Below, piece by piece: positions 43,558-62,949 of a DNA stretch of 64,000 bases. The stretch comes from Escherichia coli (GTDB lineage Bacteria > Pseudomonadota > Gammaproteobacteria > Enterobacterales > Enterobacteriaceae): the NCBI RefSeq assembly GCF_003991155.1, contig NZ_CP031293.1; one strand, 5' to 3'. The position numbers and the translations under genes are program-made. The notes beneath the pieces are model-generated. The model did not search any database, was not told the DNA's origin, and saw only the letters and a program-made list of their open reading frames with translations. Position 1 is the stretch's first letter; every line of letters starts with the position of its first letter.

Positions 43558-43580
43558 ATACCCCCAAAAGTACCCCCATA
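43558..43580. repeat. island-terminal 23-mer ATACCCCCAAAAGTACCCCCATA (putative arm-type integrase site)
   Basis: 22 of 23 identical to 62927-62949 at the other island end, same orientation. Confidence 0.5.
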
Positions 43581-43697
43581 TCTTTTTCCGCCCCTGAAAT
43601 TTGGTTGTTATTCATACAGCATATCAGGCGGTAACGCTCTCCCTTTAACCCACTTATTGTATGATAGTGCTATCCCACAATAAGGAATCAGCCAGCC

Positions 43698-44057
43698 ATG
43701 AGAATGACCAGTCGCAAAAAAGAGATACTTAGCTACTTTGAACCGGATAACCTCGAATGGGTGACTGGTGAGATTGGTGCGCCGCCGTTCGATGTGTCGG
43801 GTGTGGCCTACCTGCTTCATGGCATGGTGTCGTTCGATAAGCGTCACCAGCTCGAATCAACCCGGCGAACACTGGAAAGCATGGTTGCTGGTGGACTGCT
43901 TGAGCGGGTGACAGTGTATGAATCGCGCCAGATACGGCGCGGCGGTGATACTAACGCAACGGTCGTGCGCTACGGTTTACCCGGTCAGTGCGCTGTTATG
44001 CGCGATACTGGCGGCGCTGACAACGCAATATCAGGTGAATACATGCGGGTCAGTTAA
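43698..44057 (+). CDS. hypothetical protein (119 aa), first island gene at the attR side
   Basis: ORF with AAGGA SD; upstream inverted repeat CTTATTGT..ACAATAAG; 3' end overlaps the convergent gene by 8 bp. Confidence 0.5.
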   Translation: MRMTSRKKEILSYFEPDNLEWVTGEIGAPPFDVSGVAYLLHGMVSFDKRHQLESTRRTLESMVAGGLLERVTVYESRQIRRGGDTNATVVRYGLPGQCAVMRDTGGADNAISGEYMRVS

Positions 44058-44592
44058 TAGCCTGCAATCTGTCGTTGATGCGGCTCAGGTCGTAAACCCG
44101 GCGTTCAATATCCAGCATCAGGAAATTGTGGATCTCGGCCTGCTCAGGATTATCAGACTCTCTGGCCTGTAATAGCAATTCATTGTAACCATGCAAGCCG
44201 CCTGAGTTTTCCGCCGGGGTGGTGCCTTTCCCACGCAGGCAGCTAATGGGCTGATTACTCGTATCGTGTGTTTGCTTCTCCAGCACAATGACGCAATCCC
44301 ACCAGTCGCCAAAGTCATACGTGTAAACCAGCTTGTCACCCTCATTCTGGAGCGCCGCCCATAGTGGCGTGATTGCCGCGTTACCCATGCTTTCATCCTC
44401 ACCCCATACGCGATACTCGCTACCTGGATCACCTTTACGCCCTTTCTCGAACATATACAGGTGTTCGTCATTCCAGCCAAAAGCTAACTGGATCACGGCA
44501 TGAAGTTTACTAAAGGGGATTTGCTCTGGAACCAGCACACGCCGCCATATAGGTGGTTTGCTGTCTCGGATGGTTATCTTTAGCTGGTACAT
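44050..44592 (-). CDS. pRiA4b ORF-3-like family protein (180 aa)
   Basis: N-terminal motif YQLKITIRDSKPPIWRRVLVP as I recall for the PRiA4_ORF3 domain family; function unknown. Confidence 0.6.
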   Translation of the reverse strand: MYQLKITIRDSKPPIWRRVLVPEQIPFSKLHAVIQLAFGWNDEHLYMFEKGRKGDPGSEYRVWGEDESMGNAAITPLWAALQNEGDKLVYTYDFGDWWDCVIVLEKQTHDTSNQPISCLRGKGTTPAENSGGLHGYNELLLQARESDNPEQAEIHNFLMLDIERRVYDLSRINDRLQAIN

Positions 44593-44712
44593 GCAAATCC
44601 TGAATAAATGCGAATCGGAAGGATAACGATACTGACGTACTCACAATTCTGTAAAGGTGAATAAAGGAAATTTGCTTAATACGCATAAGTTACATGTGGA
44701 ATAATCCCATAT

Positions 44713-44898
44713 CTACCTGCGCGGCGCTGGCTTCTTCCACTGGTAGGCAGGTGCTCGCATCATTTCGCGGAACCTGTCGCGCCGGGCTATATCGGCATTA
44801 ACTGATCGTTCTATCTCCCGTTGATCTGCCTGTGTAAGCTGGTGGCCTCCGTGCTCAAGTTTGGCGATGGTCAATAAGGCTATTTCGCGTGGTGTCAT
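44713..44898 (-). CDS. hypothetical small protein (61 aa)
   Basis: ORF with AGAGGG SD-like sequence; no recognisable domain. Confidence 0.35.
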   Translation of the reverse strand: MTPREIALLTIAKLEHGGHQLTQADQREIERSVNADIARRDRFREMMRAPAYQWKKPAPRR

Positions 44899-45123
44899 AC
44901 GTCATACCCTCTGGAAGGATGAAACACGCCCGGATTAAATTTCATTTTTCGCGGGTATAAAAAAACGATGGGGCGGGCAGTCCCGGATAGTCAGGGCTGT
45001 AGAGATTTGACTACCCCCTCCCCACTGGATTCAGGTTACTGCTATTCCGTTAAGCGCTGCTTACGGGGATAGCTGCGTTGTGATTTTGACCATTCAGGTC
45101 GCCGCTATTTCCTCACCGATTGG

Positions 45124-45156
45124 GTGCTACGCGCGCGCGTACTTGTCCCGAAATAC
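45124..45156. repeat. copy 1 of repeat TGCTACGCGCGCGTACTTGTC..AAATA.CAG (contains palindrome ACGCGCGCGT)
   Basis: Near-identical to 46518-46550; related partial copies at 46755-46770 and 46807-46835. Confidence 0.6.
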
Positions 45157-45195
45157 CAGAAACCGCCAGCCAGAGGATGATTTCCCTCTGGTGGT

Positions 45196-45477
45196 CTACC
45201 TTTGCCTCTTGCCGCCATTTAACCGGAAGGCGTTACCGTTCGGTTGCGCTATCCCCATGCGGTGTTGCGTTTCGGTAACAGCTTTATGCAGGTCGCCAAA
45301 TTCCTCAACCTTCACGGGCGGGCGCTTCACGTTCTCCAGACACGTTTCACGGCGGCGCTTTATCCATTCCCGATCATCGTCCTCGGTGCATAACAGCATG
45401 ACTTCCATCCATCGTGCGGCAGCTCTCCGGTATAGCCCTTTTGACTCCAGCTCTTCAGCTTTCCTGTCCCTTATCAT
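45196..45477 (-). CDS. PerC-family transcriptional activator-like protein (93 aa)
   Basis: N-terminal motif MIRDRKAEELESKGLYRRAAARWMEVM resembles PerC/Pch family as I recall it; GAGG SD and TATAAT -10 upstream. Confidence 0.5.
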   Translation of the reverse strand: MIRDRKAEELESKGLYRRAAARWMEVMLLCTEDDDREWIKRRRETCLENVKRPPVKVEEFGDLHKAVTETQHRMGIAQPNGNAFRLNGGKRQR

Positions 45478-45513
45478 TTCTGCCTCTCAGATTATATAGA
45501 TAAGCAAAAAGGT

Positions 45514-45634
45514 GTTGGTTCAGTTGGTTCAGTTGGTTCAATTTGTAAAGATCGTTGTTTTTATTGTGTTTTTTCTGAAATGTTGAACCAACATCAACTC
45601 ATTTTGAACCAACACAGCCCAGCTCTGAACCAAC
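45514..45634. repeat. iteron module A: 3 tandem GTTGGTTCA, AT-rich spacer, 3 copies of the complementary TGAACCAAC
   Basis: Copies at 45514-22, 45523-31, 45532-40 and complementary copies at 45584-92, 45605-13, 45626-34. Confidence 0.7.
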
Positions 45635-45736
45635 AACACAGCGATAGCTTTGTGATTGGTCCGTTATTTTCTGGCTGATATTTGAGCGTATAACAGTGTT
45701 ATACAGTGGTATACTGTATGGATATTACTCACTGAT

Positions 45737-46192
45737 ATGGTCTTTGCAATGAGCAAATCTAATCTGATCGCGTTCCGCATCCCATCTGAATTGCAGGATG
45801 AGTTTAATCGGTCTGTTCTCGCTTCTGGAGGGGATAAAACCTCCTGGCTTGTTGATGCGATTCGCATGAAGCTGGGACAGCCGGAAAAGTCTATTGATTC
45901 ACGAATGCTTGGGCTGGTGGAGCGCATGGAAAAAGCCGCTGCGTCGCTTATTGCCGGAAAGCCGAACATCCCACCAAAGCCATATAACGAAACGGCAGTT
46001 ATAAAGATCATTGCCGATACCATCCAACAGGGATTTGATAATGGGCGTGTGATAGCTGAACGGATCAATGAAGCAGGCTATCAAACAAAAGCTGGTAAAG
46101 CGTGGGATAAAGATATTTACAGCGCGTGGAAGCGTCAGGGAAGCAATGCTGAAAAGTTAAAAGCGGTGATTGATTGTAAGGTCAGCGTATAA
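45737..46192 (+). CDS. putative ribbon-helix-helix (CopG/Arc-like) DNA-binding protein with extended C-terminus (151 aa)
   Basis: N-terminal IAFRIPSELQDEFNRSV...KTSWLVDAIRMKL resembles an RHH beta-strand plus helix; start may be the Met at 45749. Confidence 0.45.
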   Translation: MVFAMSKSNLIAFRIPSELQDEFNRSVLASGGDKTSWLVDAIRMKLGQPEKSIDSRMLGLVERMEKAAASLIAGKPNIPPKPYNETAVIKIIADTIQQGFDNGRVIAERINEAGYQTKAGKAWDKDIYSAWKRQGSNAEKLKAVIDCKVSV

Positions 46193-46271
46193 ACATGAGT
46201 GCCCATTGGAAAGCTGCTTGGGCCAATACCTTTATACACCAGCAGGTGGTGACGATAGGTGAGGATTAGGC

Positions 46272-46493
46272 ATGAAAGGCAGAACGCCACACATTGAACA
46301 TCAAGCCAACCACTTCTCGGATGTTCGCAATGAGATGATTGCCATTCGCGGTGATATGCACGGCTTGGAGCGTCGAATTATTGATAAGATTGATGAAAAT
46401 AGAGATAAGGCCAGTGAAAATCAAAAGTGGATCATCGGCCTGTTGATTTTATCAATTCTTATCCCGCTACTTATCGCATTGGTCACAAAATGA
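46272..46493 (+). CDS. small tail-anchored membrane protein (73 aa)
   Basis: GAGGA SD; charged coiled-coil-like N-terminus and single C-terminal TM helix (WIIGLLILSILIPLLIALV). Confidence 0.5.
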   Translation: MKGRTPHIEHQANHFSDVRNEMIAIRGDMHGLERRIIDKIDENRDKASENQKWIIGLLILSILIPLLIALVTK

Positions 46494-46517
46494 ATATCCA
46501 ATGTGTATGCTGTCGAT

Positions 46518-46550
46518 GCTACGCGCGCGTACTTGTCGCAAAATATCAGG
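46518..46550. repeat. copy 2 of the ACGCGCGCGT-ACTTGTC repeat
   Basis: TGCTACGCGCGCGTACTTGTCGCAAAATATCAG, near-identical to copy 1. Confidence 0.6.
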
Positions 46551-46754
46551 CAAAGGCCAGATTCAGAAATTCGTGATAACCACCAGCACAACATGAGAGG
46601 TCATGTAACGCGATTTATCACACCAGATACATGTGATTGGTGTACCCGCATAAAACATCGTCATAGCGCGTCCTGTGCGCATATACGCCGATAATCAACA
46701 CATCACCACCACTCTGTCTCATGTAGAGAACAGTTTTATGGTACTCCCCTCCAT

Positions 46755-46835
46755 CGTGCGCGTACTGGTCGGACGTAGTTGCAAAATTTTTTGCAACTGA
46801 TACCCCTCGCGCGCGTACTGGTCACGAAATTGGTG
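46755..46835. repeat. copies 3 and 4 (partial) of the GCGCGCGTACTGGTC repeat flanking palindrome GTTGCAAAATTTTTTGCAAC
   Basis: CGTGCGCGTACTGGTC at 46755-46770; CGCGCGCGTACTGGTCACGAAATTGGTG at 46807-46835; 20-bp perfect palindrome at 46777-46796. Confidence 0.5.
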
Positions 46836-47036
46836 TTTTGCTGTGGCAGTGATATCAGAAAAATCTTCCTGTTTCACATAAAGCGGATATGCGCGTAATG
46901 TAACGGCCCCATCAACTGGGAGCGGATTTGAGCCCGAATGTGTAGGCAATGTCACTTAACGTTTGTCGCATACCTTCCAGAAAAAGCGATTCATGAATAA
47001 TAGGGGCATGAATGCCCGGCGTACCGGGCTTATTAG

Positions 47037-47735
47037 TTAATTTGGTGCTTTAGGGTCAACATTAAAAGTTATATCACCTTCTGTATTTTTCCCGGCATAG
47101 CTAGCGGCTATTCTCGCCAACCCTTTGTAATCAGCAATTCCATCAGACTGTTGCGAGACGACTGAGCTACCAACTTTCCATAACATATTAATCTGCCGAT
47201 TATTGAGATAAGCCTTGGCATCAAACGACTGGAGTATCACCCCTGCGCCGTAGAACGTGTCCGTCACAGTTGTGTTATACGCGCCAGTAATTCCATAAGT
47301 AGGCGTATAAACTGTTGTTGCCGTTCCAGTGGTATTAGCTGTACCGTAGCCACCACCATAACTATTGAACGTGGTGTTCGAGTTTCCGTACGTTGTTGCT
47401 GAGCTCACACCAGTTTGCCCGTATATTGGGATGGTTACATTACGAGTATTTGAAATGGCCCCGCTTCTCAAAAAGTTCAAGAGAATTACCTGGTCAGCCA
47501 ATTTTTCATCTTTAACTTGTGTATATCCTTGGCTTGATAAACTGGCGGCTACTACCGTAGCTATTTGAGTGTATTCAATCTGTTTGGTGTTCCAAAGTTC
47601 TTGGCTTGCGGGGATGATCAAGAACTTCTTACCGACAGATTGCCCGGAAGATAAAGCATTGACCGTTACTAACGGTTTTTGTACGCATCCAGCCAATAAT
47701 GACAGGGATAATATTAAAAGAAGATTTTTAATCAT
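47037..47735 (-). CDS. lipoprotein (232 aa) with Gly/Thr/Tyr-rich central region
   Basis: Lipobox LLAGC in signal peptide MIKNLLLILSLSLLAGCVQ; low-complexity middle; tandem hairpins downstream of the stop. Confidence 0.7.
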   Translation of the reverse strand: MIKNLLLILSLSLLAGCVQKPLVTVNALSSGQSVGKKFLIIPASQELWNTKQIEYTQIATVVAASLSSQGYTQVKDEKLADQVILLNFLRSGAISNTRNVTIPIYGQTGVSSATTYGNSNTTFNSYGGGYGTANTTGTATTVYTPTYGITGAYNTTVTDTFYGAGVILQSFDAKAYLNNRQINMLWKVGSSVVSQQSDGIADYKGLARIAASYAGKNTEGDITFNVDPKAPN

Positions 47736-47885
47736 GATAATCTCACCTAAGAATTGCGTGGTTATAAATTATCATCACTGTAAGCGAATGTAAGCCACAG
47801 GCTCGTAATGTGATATGGAATTTTGATAGTTGGCTCAATATCAGTATGCCGTCCTTGGCTATTATGGTTTTGTTAGTTAGAGCGT

Positions 47886-50612
47886 CTATTCCCATTCGCT
47901 AACATCTTTCATGCCACTGAGGGTAGCTACAATCCCGGCCCTTGTCAGTTTCACGAATTCTTCAGCCCCAACGGCATCACGAATTGCTTTCATGGCAATT
48001 TTATTGGCCGAAAATCGTTTCTCTGCTGCGGCGATCGCTGCTGGTGATGCCCCTGCGCGCACTGCTTTTGTAGCTTCCTGAACGGCTTTCTCTATCGCAT
48101 ATCGACCACTTCTTGTCGCCCCAATCTTAGCCACAGCATTTCTTAGCGCGCCACCAGCAACCAAACCACTAATCGAACCAATTACACCACCGCCAAAGCC
48201 TCCAGCGATCGCACCTGACTGTTGAACTCCGTTCATAATCACGCCGACGATCTTTGGAAGGCCTGAATCGAGCGTTTTGAGAGCCTCAGTTGTTCTTCCC
48301 GTGCGCTCTACGTATCGCTGCGGTCTGGTACTGGCTTTAGCGAGTACACCGAACTCTTTCATCATTCTACCGAGATCTGGCGCATGACGACTGATGGCGT
48401 TTACATTCTGCTGGGTCATGAGCTTGGCAAAATACTGGATACCTGACTCTTCACCGATTCCTCCCTTCTCTCCCTGCGCCACAGCATGCTGAAGAATAGA
48501 TGCTATTGCAGGTTGGCGTTCTGCTTCCGGCAGCGCGGAGATAAGACGGTGAAAAGCTCCCGTTCCAGTGTTTGCGGATGCCTTAAGCGTATCGGCACCT
48601 TTTCTTACCATAGCGTCTGATGCGAGATCTCGACCAAAAACAGATTCGGCATTTTGTTTGGCGATAATGTAACTTTTAGAGAGATCGTTAGCTTTCTGCC
48701 ATTCTGTGAGGAAGTTTCCTTTTTCAGCCATGATGCGCATGTCATCAGTGATAGCTCTGCGCATTTCTCCGGCAATCCGGGCGGCATTGGCCTTACCTGC
48801 CCGGGTGTTTGCTTGTTCAGCATCAGCAAACTTAGCACGCCATGCCTTCATCCCGTCGAAGGTTATGCCGCCACCTTGGTTGTTGGCAGCCTGAAACTGT
48901 TTCATCTCCGGGCTGAGTGGAACATTGGCTGCTTTTTCTGCTTGGACGACAGCCATCCCATTACTCATTTTCATCCTTTCGCGTGGCATCGTGCTTCGCA
49001 GTTCTGCCCATGCCATATTCTCTGCTGTTTTCATATCACTGAGGCTCGCGATGATGCGCTCTTTAATTGCTGCGCTTTTTTCTGATGCGCTTCCAGACTC
49101 AGCACCGAAATCAGACAACTGCTTATTCAACTTTGAGGATATTTCATTGAAGGCCGTAAGGTGAGCATCCTGAACATTCCCAGGAGTTGATGCCAGAACA
49201 CCTTCTGCTTGGGCAATTCCACGACTACCTGAGCGCATTCCAGGCGTCAGGGTGTTGATATTAATACCAGTGATTTTCGCCGCCTTAGCGACATCATCTC
49301 TGACGTTTGATGCCTGCGATGCGATATGCTCTCGGCCTACGGCAGAACGCGCTGCTTTCGATACATCATTGGCGGTTTCCAGAGTATTTGCTGCCCCTAA
49401 CACATGGCCTGATTGATTTGTATTACTCCGCAATACATCTCGCATTACGTCACTGGCTGTCTGTCCGCTCTTTATTAAAGCGCGTGCTCCTAGCGATCCT
49501 GCTAGGCCAATACCTGTCTCTTTTGCTAGGTCTTCTGGGCTGATCTGCCCGTTCTTTTGGGCGTTCACCAATGTACCTGGCAGGTTTTCTGCCAACATAC
49601 TAGCCACCTTTGTGGCCGCACGTTCAGCACGTGGAGCGTTGGCAACTGAAGAAGCTGCGGTAGCTGCCTTTCCTGCACCTAATCCTGTAATAAGGTAAGG
49701 TGCTAGCTGCTCACCAGCCTGCGCGTATGGATCTGTAGGTTGGTCTACTGGGCGAAAGACAGGTGATATGGGCGTGTATGTGCCATCACCCACACCAAGC
49801 TTCTGAGCTGCCCATGCTCCGGCTGATTGCGCCGCATTGACTACCCCCACGCCTGCGTCCATTACATCAAACGGTATATTAGCAATCCCTCTGGCCATCT
49901 GCTCTGGCGCAGCTTTCAGTCCTGGCGAAAGATATTCCATCTCAGGATTAAGGTTAGACTTGGCTACTTGCTGCTGCGGTTCCCCGGCATTTTCATCGGC
50001 GAGAAACTGAGCTCTTTTCTGCTCCCATGAACTGGCTGTTGGTAGTCCTGCTTCTATGTTCTTAAATTGCTGACGTTTTGCTTCCCATGCAGAAATATCT
50101 CCCACCTGAGAGATTTCTTTATCAAGCTCTGAGTAGTCAGGCTGCTGAAGATTGCGATGTTGACTGGTTTGTGCAAACTGCAAGATTTCACTGTCATCAG
50201 GGATTATTCCGGCATCTGCAAATTTACTTACGTAATTAGCCGTTTCATCTGGCAGTGTAGATTTACCGTTTCTGACGGCATTAATACGAGCATAGCCAGA
50301 ATTATACCCAGCCAATGCCATACCTATATCACCAAATCGCTTCATTCCTTTATTGAGATGGTTTGCTGCGATATCCATTTGCTTTTCAAATGGCAGTGAG
50401 CGCGGATCTGTTCCACGATAACCAGCATCACTCATTACTGAGGGCATCAGTTGAGCAAATCCTCTAGCTCCTTTCGGTGACTCGGCACTTCCGTTACCAC
50501 TAGATTCATTGCCAACTAATGTTTCCATCGTCCCTGATGGGAAACCATATTTTTCATCGAGATGACGGGAATAGGCTTTCTGTTTTTCTGTCAGTTGTGC
50601 CATCATTGCCAT
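47886..50612 (-). CDS. large protein (908 aa) with N-terminal lytic transglycosylase (SLT) domain and long alpha-helical Ala/Lys-rich body
   Basis: SLT motifs near N-terminus (GNESSGN...ESPKGARGFAQLMP...ALAGYNSGYARI); start overlaps upstream gene stop. Confidence 0.8.
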   Translation of the reverse strand: MAMMAQLTEKQKAYSRHLDEKYGFPSGTMETLVGNESSGNGSAESPKGARGFAQLMPSVMSDAGYRGTDPRSLPFEKQMDIAANHLNKGMKRFGDIGMALAGYNSGYARINAVRNGKSTLPDETANYVSKFADAGIIPDDSEILQFAQTSQHRNLQQPDYSELDKEISQVGDISAWEAKRQQFKNIEAGLPTASSWEQKRAQFLADENAGEPQQQVAKSNLNPEMEYLSPGLKAAPEQMARGIANIPFDVMDAGVGVVNAAQSAGAWAAQKLGVGDGTYTPISPVFRPVDQPTDPYAQAGEQLAPYLITGLGAGKAATAASSVANAPRAERAATKVASMLAENLPGTLVNAQKNGQISPEDLAKETGIGLAGSLGARALIKSGQTASDVMRDVLRSNTNQSGHVLGAANTLETANDVSKAARSAVGREHIASQASNVRDDVAKAAKITGININTLTPGMRSGSRGIAQAEGVLASTPGNVQDAHLTAFNEISSKLNKQLSDFGAESGSASEKSAAIKERIIASLSDMKTAENMAWAELRSTMPRERMKMSNGMAVVQAEKAANVPLSPEMKQFQAANNQGGGITFDGMKAWRAKFADAEQANTRAGKANAARIAGEMRRAITDDMRIMAEKGNFLTEWQKANDLSKSYIIAKQNAESVFGRDLASDAMVRKGADTLKASANTGTGAFHRLISALPEAERQPAIASILQHAVAQGEKGGIGEESGIQYFAKLMTQQNVNAISRHAPDLGRMMKEFGVLAKASTRPQRYVERTGRTTEALKTLDSGLPKIVGVIMNGVQQSGAIAGGFGGGVIGSISGLVAGGALRNAVAKIGATRSGRYAIEKAVQEATKAVRAGASPAAIAAAEKRFSANKIAMKAIRDAVGAEEFVKLTRAGIVATLSGMKDVSEWE

Positions 50613-51922
50613 CCCTTAAGTTTTGCCTGATAGTAACTTTCCGGCAGATAGCCATGTGCGGTCACATAATCCTTAACCAGTGAAGGATCCTGCAACAGCA
50701 TTTTGGTATCAGTTTCTTCGTCCTTAGATTTGGTTACAGGAATACCGAGCCCGGCAATCTGTCGTTTCTGCATTCGAATAATTACGTCCTGCGCTTTATT
50801 CAACTCTCGCAAAAATGCCTCATTGCTGGTTGCTGACTTAATGCCATTTTGAGATTGCATAAGGGCAGCCCTTTCCCCTTCGGTTGGGTTAGAGCCAAAA
50901 GTCCCTTTGAGGCTAGGCAGAATAACCTTTAGGTTGTATTCATCAGCTTTGGCGCGTAGGCTTCGTGTGTCTTCTGCTACATCAGGAAGGAATCCAAACC
51001 CCAGCGTCAGGGGGTTATAGTTCTGCGAGCGGGTAACGGCCGAAGGATGTTTCCCTACAATTCCCGCCAGTTCATGACCCACTTCAAGCGCAGAGTTCAA
51101 GGAGTCGATGTTACCTACAACAGTATTAATTTTATCGTTCATCTTCTCCACTTTCGCCTGCTGTACCTTGCTCAGTTCAGCATTGAGCTTGTCTCTCTCG
51201 ATGTCATTTTGAGCACGTCCAAGTCGTGCTTTCAGAACCATTTCTCTCGTGCGTAGTTGGTTATCGGATAGGACTTTGAACTGCTCCATATCGAGACGTC
51301 GATTACCCTGTTCCGCATTAACCTGAGCATTATATGCGGATGTATCTGCGTTCTGCTGTGCAATGCTCTGCCCTTGCTGCTTCTCTTGAACACTAAAGTA
51401 ACTATTTGGATCAGCATGGAGGTGGATGAGGTCAGTGATTCTGTTGAATTCCTGTGGGTCATTCTGCCAAGACTGATAAACCTCTTCAGCAGGAAGACCA
51501 AATCGCTGTAATACTGGATTTGCCTGCTGAATGGCCTTCTGCATGGTCAGTGGATCTCCAGTTTGTGACGCAAGACGCAGATTCATGGCAGCGTCAGCGG
51601 TCTGTCGATTTTGCTCAGCATCAATGAATCCCATCTGTTTTTGAGAATCAGCCATAAACTGGGGATACTGGGCCATTAACTTCTGCACGCCAACACGATC
51701 ATTATTAGCTACCGCACTACCCAACCGTGCCTGATATTCTTTTAACTGCTGGGAAATTTGCGCCTGCTGATTAATCTCAGCAACGCCTCTTAGCCCCTGT
51801 AGCGCCATTAAACCTACGTTTGGCTGCTGCTGATACTGCACAGGCTGAGGAACGGAAGAACGAGGAGCATTATCATTTTGCGGTGCCATGCTAGGCAGCC
51901 CGCCAAGTTGCCATGTCGCCAT
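50603..51922 (-). CDS. Gln-rich coiled-coil protein (439 aa), co-transcribed with the SLT protein
   Basis: Long ORF, translationally coupled on both sides; Q/A/N-rich helical composition. Confidence 0.7.
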   Translation of the reverse strand: MATWQLGGLPSMAPQNDNAPRSSVPQPVQYQQQPNVGLMALQGLRGVAEINQQAQISQQLKEYQARLGSAVANNDRVGVQKLMAQYPQFMADSQKQMGFIDAEQNRQTADAAMNLRLASQTGDPLTMQKAIQQANPVLQRFGLPAEEVYQSWQNDPQEFNRITDLIHLHADPNSYFSVQEKQQGQSIAQQNADTSAYNAQVNAEQGNRRLDMEQFKVLSDNQLRTREMVLKARLGRAQNDIERDKLNAELSKVQQAKVEKMNDKINTVVGNIDSLNSALEVGHELAGIVGKHPSAVTRSQNYNPLTLGFGFLPDVAEDTRSLRAKADEYNLKVILPSLKGTFGSNPTEGERAALMQSQNGIKSATSNEAFLRELNKAQDVIIRMQKRQIAGLGIPVTKSKDEETDTKMLLQDPSLVKDYVTAHGYLPESYYQAKLKGWQ

Positions 51923-53054: not shown

Positions 53055-53070
53055 GCGATGCCATCCATTT

Positions 53071-53232: not shown

Positions 53233-53248
53233 AACGCCCCCCTTAGAA

Positions 53249-53264: not shown

Positions 53265-53681
53265 TTATTATAGTTTCACAAATCGCAATATTCATCATCG
53301 TAATTGCAAAATATGAAACAAATAGCACAAAAAAATGCCACCGCTCAGTAGCTGGTGGCATCGTTCTGTGTGTCAGGTTTTGACAGGTTTTTTATGGACT
53401 CTAAAAACTATATTTATGGTATCGCATTACTCTTCACGGCAGGTGCTTTTCAGTTCTGCCCTTGCTTCTGGCTCCATTGGTAATTTGATTCGCGATCAGC
53501 TATGCGGATGGTTTGCTGAACAGGCATAACAACTTCTCAGAGGCTGTTTTTTGAACTACGAAAATTTCGTAGTGCTCACTTTCAAAAACGTCACGCCCTT
53601 GTACACAGGATTTTACGAAAGTCTCGTAAAACACTCTCTGATGCCAGCCAGGTGTTGTGCGCATCAATTCAGTCACATTGT

Positions 53682-53792
53682 GTCGGTTCAAAATACCGTG
53701 TTGTTGGTTCAGTGTTGGTTCAATAAAAAGAATAAAATCCTTATAAAACAATACACTTTACAAATTGAACCAACTGAACCAACTGAACCAAC
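53682..53792. repeat. iteron module B: inverted, diverged copy of module A
   Basis: GTCGGTTCA 53682-90, GTTGGTTCA 53704-12 and 53714-22, then tandem TGAACCAAC at 53766-74, 53775-83, 53784-92; spacer begins with reverse complement of the module A spacer (ATTTGTAAAG). Confidence 0.7.
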
Positions 53793-53817
53793 ACCTTTTC
53801 TACGCACATGAAGAAGC

Positions 53818-56577
53818 TCATTCTTCAGATGAGTTATAATCTCCTGGCTGGTAATTGAGTACATAAACGTTTATTTGTCGTCCCTGAATACGTGGTGATT
53901 TTCTTTGGTATCCACGACCGCTGTTTGGTGGGGTTAGCATCCCGGCTTTTTTCAACACTTCAGCAAACTGTTTTGCGTTGAAACCACATGCGATCTCCTT
54001 TTCAAATGTGGCCGGGAATGTGTAGAAAATCATTGGGCTTTCGTCATGTTCTCCACGCTGACGGTATCCGGCTAAATCTTTGATGGGCAAATCTGCCGGG
54101 CTGTATGGAAATGGTGCAAAACGGCTAAGCCCATAGGCATTAAGAAATGCCTCCGTTTGTTCAATAATCTGCTGATGCTCTTTGTTACCTGTGCCGAACT
54201 CGCGCAACCATGCGTTATAGCTGTGCTGTATCGCATCACGGCATGTCTGAGCATCCCAGCCTGTTACAACCTCGCCTAACAACAATGCGGCCTCCAGAAT
54301 GGCAAATCGCGCGGCTACACGGTGAACCTGCTCACCATAATCGGATGGGATCAGGCTTCTCCATCTGCTTTCGCAATCACGAACGGTTTTAATAGCCTGT
54401 TGCTGGTGGTGTGCCAGCCATTTAATCCACTCACGCCCGGACGCGCCGTGGTGATGCTGGTAAGCGTCTTTCAGTGCGTCTGCGTGCTGTTTTCCGTTCT
54501 GGTAATCGTGAAAGCGTACTGCTTTACTCAACGGAATATTCAGCAGTCGCACCAGTTGCCCGGCTTTGGTTTTTCGCCCGGAAGTAGCGATAAATGTTTC
54601 TAAATCCATTTCTCCGGTGCTGATTGCCACTGTACGCCAGCGTTTTAGATCCCGGTTTCCACCATCTTTAGCGCCTTGCAGTTTCCCTACACCGTTAAAT
54701 AACGCATAGGCAGACTGTGAAACGCTGACAGGATCAGCGCCCTGACCAACTTCATCAAGCGGCATTAGTCCGTCATTGTGGGCGGCGGCCTCATTTGCCA
54801 GCCCCAGCGCGGTTCCGTACCACGTCAGCCGCAGTAAATCAGGGTTGCCGTATAAGCTGCTCGCCACGTTTGCCGTGGTGGTCTTACCTGCGCTCGACTG
54901 CTCATAGAAATGAATGCCGAACCCGTCAGCGCCCACCAGCCCAATCAATGGCGCTGCCAGTGCTGCGCCGATCCCGGTCATCATTGAATAGTTACCAAAG
55001 GCCAGACGCGCCACGTTATCACGCCAGCTTTTCGCGCTCCCTGAGACGGTATATCCGGCTGCGGCTGAGCTTCTCCCGCTGAACAGCACAGGATTTTCAG
55101 GTGTTCCGATGATTTCCCCATCAGGCATGATGTACGCTCCGCATTGCCAGCCAGTGGCATGAGCAACACGCCACAATTCACGAGAGCCACTGCGTTGTAG
55201 CCAGTCTGCCAGTATTGCTCTGAGGCTGCTTTTGGTCGTGACATTTACCCCACCAGCTTTAAGTGTGCGCCATCCTTCACGTTCACCAATATCAGCCAGT
55301 GGAATGGCAGCGGTTGTCGGCGTTTCAGAACCAAACGACAGCCAGCGAAGAATGAGATACTGGTCTTTATCGTCTCTGCCAGTACCGATAACGCTTAACG
55401 GAGAACATAACCAGCTTTCGTTATTGATGATTTCTCCACTCTGGCTGTCAGCTCTCGGAGATACCCAATAAATACCATCCTCGCGGCTTTCTATTCTTGG
55501 TTTCAGTGGGTCGGTATCCATAACCTTAAAATCGCTTCCCTCAATGGTCTGTGGCTCCTGTTTCACGCCATTACCCTGTGGTTGGTACATTGACTTATTG
55601 AACGCTTCTGTGGCGCATTTAATGCCGTGTTTTTGGTGGTAATCATTCCAGTCTGCTTTGTGATCTGTCGGGGGTAATGCCACCCATCCAGAAACAGATA
55701 AAGCTGCTTTTTCTGCTGCTATTCTCCCCGTGTTTTGTCTTCCTTCGCTGTGGTCGTTATCCGCAGCAATGATGATTTGTGCTGAAGGAAATTTATCCCG
55801 CAGTACCTGGGCGACATATAACAGGTTCCCGGCATCAATCGCCGCCACTGTCAGCGCCTCTGGACGAATTAAATGGGCAGATAATGCCGTTGCCAGACCT
55901 TCTGCGATTAAGATGCTCTGTGTTGTTTCTGGTGCGTTTATGGCGTGATATGCCCCCCGCTTTGCTGAACCTGTCAGGAGTCTTTTTTCACCATGTGAGG
56001 TAATAGTCTGTGCTGCTGTGACTGCGCCGGATTTATCCACCAGCGCCAGCAACAGAGATCCATCGGGCAACACGGGGAATGTAAAATCACCTACCCCTTT
56101 CGCAACCAGATAATCAGATTTGCCGTTTACAGCCTTTCTGCGCATGTCATCAAACTGACGGGAAAACGTATCCCGTCTTTGTTGTTCGTCCTTCTCTGCC
56201 CTTTTCAGGCGCTCCTGTTCGCGTCGCTGGCGCTCGGTTTCCAGTTGTTCCCGTTTCTGGCTGGTGGCTTCTGGTGTTTCCGTTGTCCGGTAATCAATAC
56301 CCAGAACATCAGCGGCAAGAAGCGCCGCCTCTGTTGTGTCGCAGTTATTTACGCGTTTAATTAAATCCAGCCCATCACCAGCGCCGCACTGATTACAGAT
56401 GAAGCTACCGCGCCCGTTGTCATCGAACCGGAATCGATCTTTGCCCCCACATGCAGGGCAGGGAGCATGACGGCGCGGAGAGTCAGGGACATTTATGTTC
56501 AGGCAGCCCAGCACATGAGGCCAGTTGTTTTCAGACGCACTGATAACCTGACGGATAAGATCAATGTTTCGCATCAC
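53818..56577 (-). CDS. primase-helicase (P4 alpha-like): N-terminal zinc-ribbon primase plus C-terminal P-loop helicase/NTPase
   Basis: 919 aa; zinc ribbon CPACGGKDRFRFDD...CNQCGAGDG; Walker A YEQSSAGKTTT. Confidence 0.85.
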   Translation of the reverse strand: MMRNIDLIRQVISASENNWPHVLGCLNINVPDSPRRHAPCPACGGKDRFRFDDNGRGSFICNQCGAGDGLDLIKRVNNCDTTEAALLAADVLGIDYRTTETPEATSQKREQLETERQRREQERLKRAEKDEQQRRDTFSRQFDDMRRKAVNGKSDYLVAKGVGDFTFPVLPDGSLLLALVDKSGAVTAAQTITSHGEKRLLTGSAKRGAYHAINAPETTQSILIAEGLATALSAHLIRPEALTVAAIDAGNLLYVAQVLRDKFPSAQIIIAADNDHSEGRQNTGRIAAEKAALSVSGWVALPPTDHKADWNDYHQKHGIKCATEAFNKSMYQPQGNGVKQEPQTIEGSDFKVMDTDPLKPRIESREDGIYWVSPRADSQSGEIINNESWLCSPLSVIGTGRDDKDQYLILRWLSFGSETPTTAAIPLADIGEREGWRTLKAGGVNVTTKSSLRAILADWLQRSGSRELWRVAHATGWQCGAYIMPDGEIIGTPENPVLFSGRSSAAAGYTVSGSAKSWRDNVARLAFGNYSMMTGIGAALAAPLIGLVGADGFGIHFYEQSSAGKTTTANVASSLYGNPDLLRLTWYGTALGLANEAAAHNDGLMPLDEVGQGADPVSVSQSAYALFNGVGKLQGAKDGGNRDLKRWRTVAISTGEMDLETFIATSGRKTKAGQLVRLLNIPLSKAVRFHDYQNGKQHADALKDAYQHHHGASGREWIKWLAHHQQQAIKTVRDCESRWRSLIPSDYGEQVHRVAARFAILEAALLLGEVVTGWDAQTCRDAIQHSYNAWLREFGTGNKEHQQIIEQTEAFLNAYGLSRFAPFPYSPADLPIKDLAGYRQRGEHDESPMIFYTFPATFEKEIACGFNAKQFAEVLKKAGMLTPPNSGRGYQRKSPRIQGRQINVYVLNYQPGDYNSSEE

Positions 56578-57266: not shown

Positions 57267-57276
57267 GGCTCCATCC

Positions 57277-58353: not shown

Positions 58354-58544
58354 TTTTCACCCCCAAGAATTACCAGCTCGGCACGGGCATCGTTAACCAA
58401 AGATGAGCACGCTTTAATCGCATCCACGACATCAGCAGCGTCCATTTCTTCAGCCGAAAGACTGACAGCAACCAGGACAGCCGCTGCTTGCTCGATTAAT
58501 TGAAGTGCGGACGTAAGTCGAGGGGCATTAATTGAGTTATTCAT
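58350..58544 (-). CDS. hypothetical small acidic protein (64 aa)
   Basis: ORF 58350-58601; start placed at [10 protein letters not shown] with G-rich SD; overlaps upstream stop by 8 nt. Confidence 0.5.
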   Translation of the reverse strand: MNNSINAPRLTSALQLIEQAAAVLVAVSLSAEEMDAADVVDAIKACSSLVNDARAELVILGGEK

Positions 58545-58755
58545 TGGTTGCCCCCGTTTTTCCTGGCATTTCGCCACCTTCCAGCAGGAAATGAACGTCA
58601 CGAACGGCGAGATCCAATATCGCGAGTAACGCCTTCAGTCTTTCGTCTCGTGAGGGAGAGTTGCTCACCAGAATGTCGTTAATCACTTCTGTCAGTGTGA
58701 TGATCTGGCTTGTGCGTTCGAGGGGATCCATATGCACATCGTAGGTTTTAATCAT
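58537..58755 (-). CDS. hypothetical small protein (72 aa)
   Basis: Start MIKTYDV preceded by GGAGG (6-nt spacer); ATG overlaps stop of the 58748-58942 ORF; in frame with the long 58537-59604 ORF. Confidence 0.5.
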   Translation of the reverse strand: MIKTYDVHMDPLERTSQIITLTEVINDILVSNSPSRDERLKALLAILDLAVRDVHFLLEGGEMPGKTGATNE

Positions 58756-59604
58756 GAGCCACCTCCATGCGGATACGACCAGCAAAAAAGCAGACGTGAT
58801 CGCGCACCAGAGAACGGCGAGCATCGCGTTCAGACTCGGCAGCAATATGATGAATTTTGGCGGTAATTGTCGAGCAATCGCGGCGAACTGCGGCGATAAT
58901 CCAGATAAATTGCGGTTTTTGGGTAGGGGTAGTAGCCAGCATGTGGCAGCCTCCATTCGATAGCATGTAACGCTACCACCGGAAACGCCAATTTCGCTGG
59001 TGGTAGCCCAGACAGGGTTGGCGTAACCGGCTCGAATGGATACCGGCGCTTCCGAAGAAGCCCCTGCCTGAGCCACCATTGATTGACAAAGGCGCTGGAT
59101 TATACACCAACGCCCAAAAAATGGGTGAGTCAGACCTACGACATAAAAAAAGACGCTCGGCGCGTCATATGTCGCCATTCGATTTACTAGGACGCCAATC
59201 CCGGCACCCGTTTTATGAGGTGCCTTATAACCATAAACCGTGTTGCCGCATAACGGCAAGCTCTTTTTTATGGACTCCGAAAACTCGCTATTGGAAGCAC
59301 CAGATGCACAGTACATCGCGCTCATTTCGTTAACGTCACGCGCGTGGACGAATGTTTTTGTGGAGTCACTACACGAGCGGAAGACATCATCTACGACCAG
59401 AAATTTTCTGGCGCAGCCGCTGACCTTCTCAATGCTAATATCATCGCCCGAGATTTCTGATATGGTTAAGGCATCCGTTCCGACCACCAGCAAATGATAA
59501 ACTTTGCTTGTATCTGCTGTATTAATGCCTGACTTTGCCGTCATATTGCTGGATTTTGGCGACATACCAGCCAGTGAAAATGTCTTCTTCTGGACGGTTA
59601 GCAT
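58537..59604 (-). CDS. long open frame (355 aa) from a GGAGG-preceded ATG at 59604; likely real only in its N-terminal about 210 aa, possibly frameshifted
   Basis: No in-frame stop until 58537 although two SD-preceded small genes lie inside or overlapping it; the middle of the translation is low-complexity. Confidence 0.3.
58748..58942 (-). CDS. hypothetical small protein (64 aa)
   Basis: Start MLATTPTQ preceded by GGAGG (7-nt spacer); alternative frame relative to the long ORF. Confidence 0.45.
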   Translation of the reverse strand: MLATTPTQKPQFIWIIAAVRRDCSTITAKIHHIAAESERDARRSLVRDHVCFFAGRIRMEVAHD

Positions 59605-59780
59605 TTGTTAACCTCCGCGAACTCCTTCATGAAACGCGCCAGCGGTTGTACGCATGGCGATTGATACCCGTCGCGATAAAACGTCACTCGGTTGTGAGAC
59701 ACGCTTTCGACAGTAACGAGTGCTCCGTGGGCATCTTTGTAGCGTTTTTGTGGTTGTGGTGTTCCTGTTGGCTTAGACAT
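59598..59780 (-). CDS. hypothetical small protein (60 aa)
   Basis: ORF 59598-59867; start placed at MSKPTGTPQ with GGAGG SD; overlaps antirepressor-like gene end and next gene start. Confidence 0.5.
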   Translation of the reverse strand: MSKPTGTPQPQKRYKDAHGALVTVESVSHNRVTFYRDGYQSPCVQPLARFMKEFAEVNKC

Positions 59781-60606
59781 TGACCACCTCCAGACGCTTG
59801 GCGAGCCAGCGTTGCGACAGGCGGGTGAGTTCTCCTTTGCGCTGCTCATATTCCATGCCCATATCAATTAACGTGATATTGGTGCTTTCGAGATATGAGA
59901 GGTGCTCAAGCTGTTCTGCGTTCATATGGTCGCGAGGTTCGCCAGAATAGCCATTTATCCGCGCCCACTGCTTAGCAGTTAGCCCACCAAGAACGATACG
60001 AGAAATCATATTGCTCTCGTTTGTGTAGTGGTGTTGCTGCGTCGTTTTACCCATCTCGGCACGGGCCATATTCAGCGCATCGCACATTGGCTTAAAGTTG
60101 TTTGCGGCACTGAGACGGGCTTTTAGCTGGCGACGATAGCGGGCGGCGATTTCAGGCACGCTACGCTGTAATTCTTCCTCGCACTGGATGAAATAACGGC
60201 GGATAGCGCGACCCTGATCATTGCGTTCGATCATTGCCAGTTCTTTCGCCATTCCGACACTTAACAGATAGTCTTTGCCGGGTCTGCCAGAGTGCTTTAT
60301 CTTGCTGTAAGCCGCGCCATTCGGGCTTTTCCCCAAATTTGGGGAAATTGTTTTATGGACTGAGTAATCGTGCCCAATGGTGAAGTCATATTCAGAGATG
60401 CGATCAGTGATCCATGTAGAGAAGTCTTTTCCCACGCCCAACGCTTTGTGTAACGCTTTTGCGCTAACAATATTGGTTTCACGCCCACCGATATGACCAG
60501 GAATAACCGGGACAATTGCGGCAAATTCATTACCGTTAATTGTGCTCAGAGAGGCGTTCAGATGAGGGGCGGCCTCAGAAATTAATCTGCTTTTTTCGAT
60601 GTTCAT
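59773..60606 (-). CDS. phage antirepressor-like protein (Rha/Ant-type N-terminus with KilA-C-like domain)
   Basis: 277 aa; KilAC-like motif DYLLSVGMAKELAMIERNDQGRAIRRYFIQCEEEL; GGAGA SD. Confidence 0.65.
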   Translation of the reverse strand: MNIEKSRLISEAAPHLNASLSTINGNEFAAIVPVIPGHIGGRETNIVSAKALHKALGVGKDFSTWITDRISEYDFTIGHDYSVHKTISPNLGKSPNGAAYSKIKHSGRPGKDYLLSVGMAKELAMIERNDQGRAIRRYFIQCEEELQRSVPEIAARYRRQLKARLSAANNFKPMCDALNMARAEMGKTTQQHHYTNESNMISRIVLGGLTAKQWARINGYSGEPRDHMNAEQLEHLSYLESTNITLIDMGMEYEQRKGELTRLSQRWLAKRLEVVNV

Positions 60607-60618
60607 TTTCAGTCTCCG

Positions 60619-61050
60619 TTAGGCGGCGTTAAACGCGTCCGGGTAGAGTTTCAGAATGTCGGCAATTTCCTGCTGAGAAAGTCCGTTGTGATCATTTATG
60701 TTCGCAAGATGGTTAATATGAGTGATCACTTTCAGAACATCACCACGGCAGGAGAAACGGTAGCGAAGGTGTGTTCCGATACCATCAGGATTCTTTTCGT
60801 CGATACGCTCCAGAGTGATTCCAAGCTGGCGTTCTAACTCTGTTGCATAGTTACGACCAGAAGACAGACGGCAGTAGCGAAGAATGTCATTTTCTGTCCA
60901 TCCCTCTATACCAGTACGCAGCATATAGACTCTGGCACGATGCTTTTTCGGTGTGCGCTTTGGTGCTTGAAGGGATTTTGTAAGGGGCGTAACATCAGAT
61001 ACACGAATATCTGAATTAGCCGCCTGTAATGGGCGGTTTTTCTTTTCCAT
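60619..61050 (-). CDS. hypothetical protein (143 aa) translationally coupled to alpA
   Basis: ATG overlaps alpA stop (TGATG); GAGGT SD. Confidence 0.55.
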   Translation of the reverse strand: MEKKNRPLQAANSDIRVSDVTPLTKSLQAPKRTPKKHRARVYMLRTGIEGWTENDILRYCRLSSGRNYATELERQLGITLERIDEKNPDGIGTHLRYRFSCRGDVLKVITHINHLANINDHNGLSQQEIADILKLYPDAFNAA

Positions 61051-61253
61051 CAGGCCACCTCGTCTCTAGATTCTAATATACACTTCTCAATCCATTCATC
61101 TATTTCAGACTCAACAAAAGCAATTGCCCGACTTCCAATTTTTACCTGTTTAGGGAACCTCCCCTGACTAATAAGACGATAAATCCATGCTTTGCTATAA
61201 CCAGTTCGCCTTTGAACTTCAGAGAGACGAATTAATGAATTGTAATTAGCCAT
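61050..61253 (-). CDS. alpA: AlpA-family phage regulatory protein / excisionase-like (67 aa)
   Basis: MANYNSLIRLSEVQRRTGYSKAWIYRLISQGRFPKQVKIGSRAIAFVESEIDEWI: typical AlpA/MerR-like HTH. Confidence 0.8.
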   Translation of the reverse strand: MANYNSLIRLSEVQRRTGYSKAWIYRLISQGRFPKQVKIGSRAIAFVESEIDEWIEKCILESRDEVA

Positions 61254-61680
61254 TTATTAATATCCTGTACTAATGACGCAATAACCCCCTCCTGCAACGA
61301 ATGGCGAGAGTTTTATTTGCGTCAAATGTCGAATACGCCAAAGACCACAATATGAAAAACATATTGCGGTCTTTTATAAAAGATAGTCAGATTGTTTTGG
61401 TTTGTTTGCTCCACAAGGGTAGAGCTACCCTGCATTTCGGCAGGATCACGCTATTAGGCGTGACATCCAGTAGTTTTAAAGAACAATTGCGCTTTGTCAG
61501 CGCCAAAGCCTGTTAAAGAACATTCCGCTTTTCAGCAGCGTAGAAGGCTCAATACACCTTCGTTTATAAAAGAGCGATTGCCCTTCTCCAGGGCTAACTG
61601 TTAAATAGCAATCCTCTGTGAGTTTTTATCAATCTACTCCCCTATACTTTAGTAAACCTCTGTATACTTGTCCAGTTGTT

Positions 61681-62895
61681 TCATGCGTGTTTTTCAAACA
61701 CCATATGCACCACATTTCCGCCATGCTCGAGAGAATCCATATAGTCGGCATACCATTGAAGCATCTCCCGCCGTCCATCCAGATATTGCGCATGGTTGTA
61801 TGTGCCACGAATTGAGTTCTTATCAACGTGAGCGAGCTGCGTTTCTATCCACGCGGTGTTATAGCCCTGCTCATGCAAAATCGTGCTCATAGTGTGTCGG
61901 AACCCATGACCAGTTACACGTCCAGCGTAGCCAATGCGCTTAAACACTTGGTTTATGCTGGCCTCACTCATTGTTTTCCTTGGATCATTGCGCCCGGGAA
62001 ACATAAGAGGGTAATTGCCTGTTATTTCTCTAATCTTCCCAATAAGCGAAAGAGCCTGCTCAGACAATGGCACAATATGAGGCCGCCGCATTTTCATACG
62101 TGAAGCGGGTATCTCCCATATAGCCTTGTTGAAATCAATTTCATCCCATAATGCGCCACGTAGTTCGCCAGTTCGCAAGCCGGTGATAATCAGTAGACGA
62201 GCCGCCATAACAACCAATGCGCTTCCTGAGTAACTGGACAATGCCTTGAAAAAATCAGGTAATTCTTTGGTCGTAAGGAAAGGGTAATGATTAGATTCAT
62301 GGCCTTGCATCGCGCTAGTAAGGTCTGGTGCAGGGTTATACTCTGCGCGACCAGTGACTATTGCATAGCGGAAAACTTCCCCGCACCGCTGCCTCACTTT
62401 TTTGGCTTTTTCTGTCGCACCGCGCCCCTCGATGCGCCGCAGCACATTCAGAAGTTCAAGTGGTTTGATTTCGGCGATTGGTTTTTTGCCAATGTAAGGG
62501 AACACATCTTTGTTGAAGGCTTCGAGGATGTCTGAAGCATAACCAGCAGACCATTTTTTTAATTTGCTGCTGTGCCACTCAAGGGCAATATCTTTGAAGG
62601 TGTTGTTTAACTGCGTTTCCCGGGCAATCTTTTCCTCTCGTTTCGCTTCCATCGGATCGATACCACCAGCGATACCTCTTTTCGCATCTTCACGTTTTGC
62701 CCGAGCATCGGCTAGAGTAACCTCAGGATACACACCTAGTGCCAATAGCTTCTCTTTACCAGCTACACGATATTTAAGTCGCCAGTATTTACCTCCATTA
62801 GGTTTTACCAAGAGATACAAACCGCCACCATCGGCCAGCTTGTAAGCCTTCTCTTTTGGCTTGGCTGTGTCTATTTGACGGGCATTGAGTTTCAC
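61681..62895 (-). CDS. int: P4-type tyrosine integrase
   Basis: 404 aa; N-terminal P4-integrase arm-binding signature (GLYLLVKPNGGKYWRLKYR) and C-terminal catalytic region (HGFRHTMST...RGTYNHAQY); 165 bp from tRNA 3' end. Confidence 0.95.
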   Translation of the reverse strand: MKLNARQIDTAKPKEKAYKLADGGGLYLLVKPNGGKYWRLKYRVAGKEKLLALGVYPEVTLADARAKREDAKRGIAGGIDPMEAKREEKIARETQLNNTFKDIALEWHSSKLKKWSAGYASDILEAFNKDVFPYIGKKPIAEIKPLELLNVLRRIEGRGATEKAKKVRQRCGEVFRYAIVTGRAEYNPAPDLTSAMQGHESNHYPFLTTKELPDFFKALSSYSGSALVVMAARLLIITGLRTGELRGALWDEIDFNKAIWEIPASRMKMRRPHIVPLSEQALSLIGKIREITGNYPLMFPGRNDPRKTMSEASINQVFKRIGYAGRVTGHGFRHTMSTILHEQGYNTAWIETQLAHVDKNSIRGTYNHAQYLDGRREMLQWYADYMDSLEHGGNVVHMVFEKHA

Positions 62896-62926
62896 TTGGG
62901 GGTACCTCCACTAAACCGAACAGCAA

Positions 62927-62949
62927 ATACCCCCATAAGTACCCCCATC
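62927..62949. repeat. island-terminal 23-mer ATACCCCCATAAGTACCCCCATC (putative arm-type site), partner of 43558-43580
   Basis: 22 of 23 identity with the distal copy, same orientation. Confidence 0.5.

Follow-up and report, generated by a model that had tools for sequence, protein, structure and literature searches.

Doubled motifs inside both ends of the thrW island

The window analysed here, a stretch of 64,000 nucleotides from Escherichia coli (contig NZ_CP031293.1), contains a genomic island inserted at the tRNA gene thrW, flanked by proA-thrW at one end and by yagU with the ecp operon at the other. Beside the tRNA gene the island carries int, which encodes a P4-type tyrosine integrase, followed by the gene of an AlpA-family protein, and a copy of the thrW 3' end is present at each junction, attL next to int and attR at the far end (Table 1). 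Just inside each of these core copies lies a 23-mer made of a doubled motif. The two 23-mers are the subject of this work; on the sequence comparisons presented below, they are very probably arm-type binding sites of the island's own P4-family integrase.

Both had been picked out in the original prediction as near-identical sequences in the same orientation, some 60 to 110 bp inside the island ends, and their sequences, coordinates and shared orientation proved exact. They read alike on the + strand and have 21/23 bases in common. Measured from the attR core copy, the P-arm motif begins 60 bp into the island, and measured from the attL core, the P'-arm motif ends 105 bp into it, the centres of the doubled motifs being 83 bp (attR) and 128 bp (attL) from the respective core centres. 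The earlier inventory of repeats, correct for both 23-mers, had overlooked a third, inverted copy immediately ahead of the int start codon.

Table 1. Positions of the att sites, probable arm-type sites and neighbouring genes in the window, with the homologous arm repeats of phage P4
Feature	Position	Strand	Remarks
C-terminal remnant of a second integrase gene	43316-43474	+	Just outside attR, convergent with thrW
attR core copy, imperfect thrW 3' end	43475-43497		TATC-GCACCA, compared with TATCGGCACCA in the tRNA gene
Spacer between P-arm motif and attR core	43498-43557		60 bp, 72% A+T, T5-T6 runs
P-arm doubled motif, attR end	43558-43580	+ strand letters	ATACCCCCAAAAGTACCCCCATA
P-arm half-sites, direct	43558-43566 and 43570-43578		TGGGGGTAC and TGGGGGTAT in int-sense reading
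Iteron block, first copy	45507-45640		Inverted relative to second copy
P22-type DNA-ejection cargo	47886-51922	-	908-aa protein with SLT lytic transglycosylase domain; 439-aa protein with Inj_translocase domain
Iteron block, second copy	53679-53799		Directly 3' of the primase gene
Primase gene	53818-56577	-
AlpA-family helix-turn-helix protein	61050-61253	-	67 aa; PF05930, E 7.4e-20
P4-type tyrosine integrase (int)	61681-62895	-	404 aa, GTG start; Pfam arm, central and catalytic domains
Third arm-type copy	62897-62905	-	GTACCCCCA; inverted relative to the other four; on the int-sense strand, between the GGAGG ribosome-binding site and the GTG start
P'-arm doubled motif, attL end	62927-62949	+ strand letters	ATACCCCCATAAGTACCCCCATC
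P'-arm half-sites, direct	62927-62935 and 62939-62947		At -51 and -39 relative to the int start
GTCTAC-like sites, int-proximal cluster	62955-62990	-	Four sites: GTCTTT, GTCTAC, GTCCCT, ATCTAC; 10-bp phase; includes GACTTTAGTAGAC at 62968-62980
GTCTAC-like sites, core-proximal cluster	63028-63053	-	Three sites: ATCTCC, GTCTAC, GTCTTT; 10-bp phase; includes GACTTTAGTAGAC at 63031-63043
attL core	63055-63077		thrW 3' end and a few bases past it
tRNA-Thr(CGT), thrW, integration target	63061-63136	-	Co-oriented with int; 3' end 166 bp upstream of the int start
P4 inverted repeat at int start	P4 3915-3926		Homologue of window 62897-62905
P4 direct repeat pair upstream of int	P4 3942-3965		Homologue of the window's P' pair
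P4 direct repeat pair, far side of core	P4 4151-4174		Homologue of window 43558-43580

Each 23-mer consists of (A/G)TACCCCCA repeated directly with a 12-bp period, a sequence that bears no relation to the thrW core. A degenerate 22-nt pattern, allowed up to three mismatches, matched the two 23-mer sites and nothing else in the window, and shuffled sequence gave 0.00 matches. The lone 9-mer, at up to one mismatch, was not significantly enriched in the window (15 matches, 8.3 expected), so that the signal resides in the doubled unit, with its half-sites 12 bp apart. In the attP obtained by circularising the island in silico, the core is flanked by two arm sites at the far end and by three towards int. 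A text search of the literature for TGGGGGTA, TACCCCCA and similar strings returned only unrelated primer or sequence matches.

Arm sites of P4 and other known systems, and doubled motifs in related loci

The arm repeats in the attP of phage P4 were reportedly described by Pierson and Kahn in 1987. In the P4 sequence (GenBank NC_001609) six 'attP arm sequence repeat' features are annotated, five of them flanking the core (4078-4097). The P4 arm motif is TGGGGGCAT, and in the sense of int the order is GGGGGCAC-aaaa-GGGGGCAT, 53 bp, core, 112 bp, TGGGGGCATaatTGGGGGCAT, inverted GTGCCCCCAA, ATG; the doubled motifs are 75 and 134 bp from the core centre, as computed from the annotated coordinates. 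P4 and the island have in common a tandem pair of 12-bp period on each side of the core, an inverted copy at the int start, similar distances to the core, a G5 run followed by a short specific tail, and an AlpA-family excisionase (Vis in P4 and a likely one in the island). They differ in the tail of the motif and in two residues of the integrase, GGGGGTA going with L29/L50 in the window and GGGGGCA with E29/R50 in P4; in the target, which is thrW for the island and leuX for P4; in the core, whose attR copy in the window has a 1-nt deletion, the P4 record listing just one attP core sequence of 20 bp; and in a promoter-like element, weaker in the window. The two integrases are 61% identical in the N-terminal domain and only 38.5% identical in the catalytic part. 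Features of this kind have been known ever since the sequencing of P4; the arm sites of the window differ in sequence only and are for that reason unsurprising. The sixth P4 arm repeat lies inside int (3621-3632), and the int of the window has no such copy; a near-doubled motif, GGGGTATCGCTGGGGGTATCG, occurs within the int coding sequence, at +216 from the start, in loci L007-L010 and L077 of the survey described below, which are of the GGGGGTA type.

The lambda attP carries arm sites P1-P2 and P'1-P'3, the same count of two plus three as found in the window; for the lambda sites, PMC2951348 cites Ross & Landy 1982. The two systems resemble each other in having a heterobivalent integrase, two arm sites to one side of the core and three int-proximal ones, and an attP span of about 250-300 bp, and they differ in the arm-domain family and in the sequences and orientations of the sites; no consensus for integration host factor (IHF) was found in either arm of the island.

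In KplE1 (CPS-53), the IntS integrase has arm-type P' sites in attL at argW which overlap the intS promoter and mediate repression, and attL also contains sites for the excisionase TorI, which are situated core-proximal to the P' sites and overlap the region of the intS promoter close to its -35 box (PMC2951348). As in the window, the tRNA gene is co-oriented with int and the arm sites lie between the two, on the int promoter. The IntS arm consensus, in contrast, contains TAAA where the window has a G5 run, and autoregulation has been demonstrated experimentally for IntS but is only inferred for the window.

A doubled motif has also been described in helper-embedded phage-inducible chromosomal islands (PICIs), with two co-oriented copies of tgTGTATTGCantgTGTATTGCa / TGTATTGC per attP, at distances from its centre of 81 +/- 2 and 132 +/- 2 bp. 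It was held to be unique to helper-embedded PICIs, and whether the arm domain of Int or AlpA binds it was left open (PMC10111431). The motif of the window is likewise doubled and co-oriented, at similar distances (83 and 128 bp), and it too belongs to a Gram-negative element of the PICI type with alpA following int; it differs in its sequence. Taken with the family comparison below, the helper-embedded PICI motif would appear to represent a single sequence class within a feature of the whole family, and the comparison points to the integrase arm domain as its binder.

In a survey of one genome per species, 80 loci with relatives of the integrase (48-98% identity) were scanned. In most of them a distance of 165-167 bp separates the tRNA 3' end from the int start downstream. 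The layout kept across the 80 loci, which come from many genera, combines a direct pair, its copies at -51 and -39 (a pair position of -50 to -52 in loci of standard geometry), with an inverted copy near -9. The motif itself varies by clade, being GGGGGTA in 35 loci, GGGGGCA in 21, (G/T)TGTATAG in 13, and GGGGGCC and GGGGGCT in two each. The three attL copies within an element change together, the inverted copy at about -9 matching the motif type of its own element.

The location of the doubled motif was counted in 1.49 Mb, comprising the related loci and the window. All 38 exact GGGGGTA-N5-GGGGGTA pairs were found either just upstream of int or kilobases downstream of it, and none elsewhere in the 1.49 Mb on either strand, with about 0.016 expected by chance. 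Pairs upstream of int occupy -50 to -52 where the geometry is standard and -83 to -90 in three variant loci, and the five downstream pairs inspected, including that of the window, are all attR ends. Within E. coli, the 23-mer is kept at 22/23 positions even where the attR region shows no more than 77-79% BLAST identity to the query. The lack of enrichment of the single 9-mer might have suggested that the 23-mers have no function and arose as a repeat by chance or by hitch-hiking. Against this stand the shuffles, which expect 0.00 matches to the doubled unit, the position of the motif, fixed to +/- 1 bp in the standard-geometry loci of dozens of genera, the confinement of exact pairs to int-upstream or attR-like downstream positions, and the persistence of the motif both with integrases 45% identical C-terminally and in E. 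coli attR regions with diverged flanks. A chance repeat is effectively refuted by these conservation data.

Wherever attR was in range, in eight loci and the window, its pair and that of attL agree in type (9/9 elements). GGGGGTA occurs at six of the nine attR ends, and GGGGGCA, GTGTATAG and TTGTATAG at one each. The eight other elements show the geometry seen in the window, with the doubled motif, a spacer of about 55-65 bp and the tRNA-3' core copy, and because this arrangement recurs, the 23-mers lend the island boundaries the independent support that had been claimed for them. The two att core copies of the window match at 22/23 positions, with one 1-nt indel. An attR tRNA-3' copy with a deletion of 1-2 nt in the acceptor stem was observed in 7/9 elements with five different tRNA targets (the window, L006, L015, L021, L022, L054 and L081). 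Such 'damage' of the tRNA fragment at attR has been reported as PICI-specific, and the acceptor-stem deletion of the window is of the same kind (PMC10111431).

A search of viral contigs for GGGGGTA-N5-GGGGGTA gave at least 84 matches in at least 80 stretches. Among the matches listed, at least 16 are attL-like, with the start of a P4-type int 38-94 bp downstream, and at least about a dozen were judged by eye to be attR-like, having a core that resembles a tRNA 3' end beyond an A/T-rich spacer. In the viral contigs L102, L109, L137 and L161, doubled or tripled GGGGGTA motifs precede integrases that are 34-43% identical to that of the window, and some of these contigs have two or three inverted TACCCCC copies ahead of the start codon. 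The presence of GGGGGTA with such divergent viral integrases means that this arm type reaches well beyond the sampled Enterobacterales elements.

Tandem islands were observed at one tRNA-Arg(TCT) gene in L022 (approximately 17096-17350) and in L072 (approximately 11264-11520), where the attR of a GGGGGTA-type island is directly followed by the attL of a GGGGGCA-type island. With arm types that differ, adjacent islands may be able to excise without affecting one another.

The protein that reads the motif

The integrase of the island has the three Pfam domains of its family, with E values of 1.4e-28, 1.3e-34 and 1.8e-26, the Arm-DNA-bind_3 domain (PF13356) covering residues 3-88, and as a whole it is about 49% identical to the IntS-type integrases of Sf6, HK620 and KplE1. 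A structural model of residues 1-105 (pLDDT 87.5) shows strands at 18-23, 26-30, 36-44 and 47-56, followed by helices. Residues 2-99 match PDB entry 3JU0 (E 1.9e-27), and 3JTZ is matched at E 1.3e-20; both chains were deposited as integrases, and we take them to be arm-binding-domain structures of genomic-island integrases, the same ones cited in PMC8138268. The DUF4102/PF13356 arm domain has an extra strand and helix compared with that of lambda (PMC8138268).

Within the survey, the type of motif is not set by the tRNA target, since Thr-CGT, Arg-TCT, Gly-CCC, SeC and Ser-TGA are each found with at least two types. Mutual information with motif type was highest for eight integrase alignment columns, which correspond to residues 50, 31, 29, 37, 40, 58, 53 and 44. 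Six of these (29, 37, 40, 44, 50 and 53) are on strands beta2-beta4 of the model, and the other two, 31 and 58, are in the loops after beta2 and beta4. Two loci that target thrW, L012 and L080, encode integrases which are 83% identical to that of the window over residues 100-404 and 64-66% over residues 1-90, and their motif is GGGGGCA; those of L079 and L081, 45% identical in the catalytic part and 63% in the N-terminal one, have GGGGGTA. Motif type thus goes with the N-terminal domain of the integrase, and the tRNA target with its C-terminal part.

The residue pair at positions 29 and 50 corresponds one-to-one to the type within every tRNA group: LL with GGGGGTA, E/Q-R with GGGGGCA, LM with GTATAG, LK with GGGGGCC and EK with GGGGGCT. 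P4, which had been held out, obeys the same code with E29 and R50 and GGGGGCA. The positions of the sites, their conservation and this covariation with the N-terminal domain are direct observations, and with the positional homology to P4, the Arm-DNA-bind_3 domain and the recurring attR geometry they support the integrase part of the original prediction. That the same pairing of residues and motif is seen in at least five tRNA-target groups argues for several independent reassortments of arm type. A wider proposal is that the arm-binding domain of the P4 family has a simple predictive recognition code, in which at least five site classes are set one-to-one by residues 29 and 50, and that arm specificity is a swappable module, repeatedly reassorted against the catalytic domain and tRNA target; we regard the case for this as evenly balanced. 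A prior description of family-wide site classes, of the residue-motif code or of the reassortment was not found in the literature, the coverage of which was limited, and the picture of several arm-site classes, a residue-motif correspondence and arm versus core reassortment may be new.

The original prediction had offered an excisionase as alternative binder, and the doubled motifs could accordingly be sites of the AlpA-family excisionase and regulator, or of another DNA-binding protein of the island, the question left open for the helper-embedded PICI motif (PMC10111431). Half-sites 12 bp apart would be in keeping with this, as recombination directionality factors typically bind direct repeats about one helical turn apart (PMC7498355). 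AlpA homologues, mostly about 63-79% identical to that of the window, occur however with the GGGGGTA, GGGGGCA and GTATAG types alike, being about equally conserved in elements with differing arm motifs, and no AlpA was found within 11 kb in several GGGGGTA elements, which argues that AlpA is not the reader of the 23-mers. The type follows integrase residues 29 and 50 instead, one-to-one and with P4 included. Excisionase sites are usually confined to one arm, whereas the doubled motifs stand on both sides of the core, and the separate family of phased GTCTAC-like sites provides a better candidate for the excisionase. Binding of the 23-mers by AlpA or another such protein is thus considered very unlikely.

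The GTCTAC-like sites comprise seven hexamers in exact 10-bp phase, arranged in two clusters between the core and the P' sites. They include the two GACTTTAGTAGAC repeats reported earlier between int and the tRNA gene, of which the window has exactly two occurrences there; in the int-sense reading the repeat is GTCTACTAAAGTC, and at up to two mismatches it has 4 matches in the window, with 0.69 expected. These repeats had been grouped with the 23-mers as integrase or excisionase sites. They form a separate class, since GTCTAC-type sites are found at the same places in related loci irrespective of arm type, and of the two proteins the excisionase is the more likely one. The GTCTAC-like sites are assigned to AlpA because phased repeats at one helical turn typify directionality factors and because the TorI sites of KplE1 lie in attL near the intS promoter; as candidate sites of an AlpA/Vis-type excisionase they are provisional, with a likelihood slightly short of even. 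About 13 loci have GTCAAC- or ATCAAC-type sites, and none of them has a close AlpA, four encoding an AlpA-like protein of 40-44% identity; many GTCTAC loci are also without detectable AlpA, and the comparison does not separate shared ancestry. A search for the excisionase in the GTCAAC-type loci gave a clear divergent AlpA-like reading frame in L014 only, and in the selenocysteine-tRNA group no AlpA-like reading frame was found on the int strand within 2.4 kb.

A role at the RNA level can also be envisaged, in which the GGGGGUA at -39 would pair with the inverted UACCCCC by the ribosome-binding site in transcripts read through from thrW and so block the translation of int, while transcripts from the int promoter, without the 5' arm, would be translated. 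Work by Piazzolla in 2006 reportedly found P4 int to be under post-transcriptional control. The predicted minimum-free-energy structure (-30.1 kcal/mol) does pair the -39 and inverted copies, and direct and inverted copies are complementary in all motif types. The fold is nevertheless no better than those of shuffled sequences (z = -1.16, with 26/200 shuffles at least as stable), and the complementarity is equally expected if a protein recognises a single motif in both orientations. Since the first direct copy and the attR pair, about 19 kb off and covarying in 9/9 elements, are not explained by pairing, an RNA role could at most be an added function, and as the explanation of the doubled motifs it is given marginally less credence than AlpA.

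In P4, a promoter-like element, TTGAAA-18-CATAAT, has its -10 box within and just past the first P' repeat, with the inverted site overlapping the start of translation, and a comparable element was found at the homologous place in 32/81 loci. P4 Int represses its own promoter, according to PMC7286903 (citing Pierson & Kahn 1987 and Piazzolla 2006). By analogy with P4 and with IntS of KplE1, the integrase on the P' sites probably represses its own gene. This autoregulation is less certain in the window than in P4, because the promoter-like element of the window, CTCAAA-17-GGTACT, is weak (6/12). A consensus promoter scan of positions 62700-63200 found nothing, and expression of int in the window may rely on an activator or on transcripts continuing from thrW.

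Taking the 23-mers as arm sites of the integrase, the attP would be ordered as a P arm with two direct sites, a 60-bp A/T spacer, the thrW-3' core, the seven phased GTCTAC-like sites, a P' arm with two direct sites, 21 bp, one inverted site and the start codon of int. The N-terminal beta-sheet domain of each integrase subunit would bind an arm half-site and the C-terminal domains would bind the core, the intervening DNA being bent, with the A/T-rich attR spacer presumably as the bending segment, into a complex competent for integration and, with the excisionase, for excision. The P' sites overlie the int control region, and integrase bound there would repress int.

Some points weigh against this reading. 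The support for it is comparative throughout, and common descent accounts for part of the covariation. The remaining viral matches listed are unrelated tandem repeats or coding sequence, so that the doubled motif is not exclusive to att sites across the virome. No match to the IHF consensus (WATCAANNNNTTR) with up to one mismatch was found in 43490-43565 or 62895-63060.

Gene content of the island and meaning for the P4 family

The proteins of the island recognised by Pfam are the integrase, AlpA, AntA-type and Ash-type proteins, a Zn-ribbon/Toprim/DUF927 primase and P22-type ejection proteins. The modules lie beside the tRNA gene in the order int, alpA, Bro/antirepressor and primase-helicase, in agreement with the annotation of a related E. 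coli island, and P4-like satellites and Gram-negative PICIs have the same gene order, with zones as in PMC10111431. The AlpA-family protein is likely the excisionase and regulator of the island. With int, alpA, both arms and both core copies all present, the island is a complete element of the P4/PICI type and may still be capable of excision. In E. coli AMSCJX02 both island ends were matched at 100%, with an island of different length.

The remnant of a second integrase gene, just outside attR, appears in the annotation of E. coli E50 as a partial integrase with a frameshift. It is probably a leftover from an earlier prophage at thrW, similar to CP-933H; thrW-intH has been listed among convergent pairs (PMC2951348). 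The cargo of ejection proteins is unusual for a small satellite and may correspond to the 'elongated PICIs' with captured helper late genes (PMC10111431). The two inverted iteron blocks, 8.1 kb apart, are 93% identical over 55 nt, each with three copies of TTGGTTCAG (9-bp period), about 45 bp of A/T-rich sequence, and three copies of TGAACCAAC about 21 bp apart; the pair resembles the ori/crr arrangement of P4 around the alpha primase gene.

Current understanding is not overturned by the arm sites of the window or by the family comparison. The arm sites give an independent, mechanism-based confirmation of both ends of the island, and an old annotation of a single phage is extended to a rule, by which a doubled motif is expected about 80 and about 130 bp from the core, with a sequence predicted by integrase residues 29 and 50. 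The rule can be used to delimit P4-type islands where the direct repeats are short or damaged. If true, the two-residue code would generalise the doubled motif beyond helper-embedded PICIs and would settle the question of whether the Int arm domain or AlpA binds it (PMC10111431). It also offers a handle on how DNA is read by DUF4102 arm domains, and tandem islands with differing arm types at one tRNA gene, as in L022 and L072, could, if the code holds, excise independently of each other.

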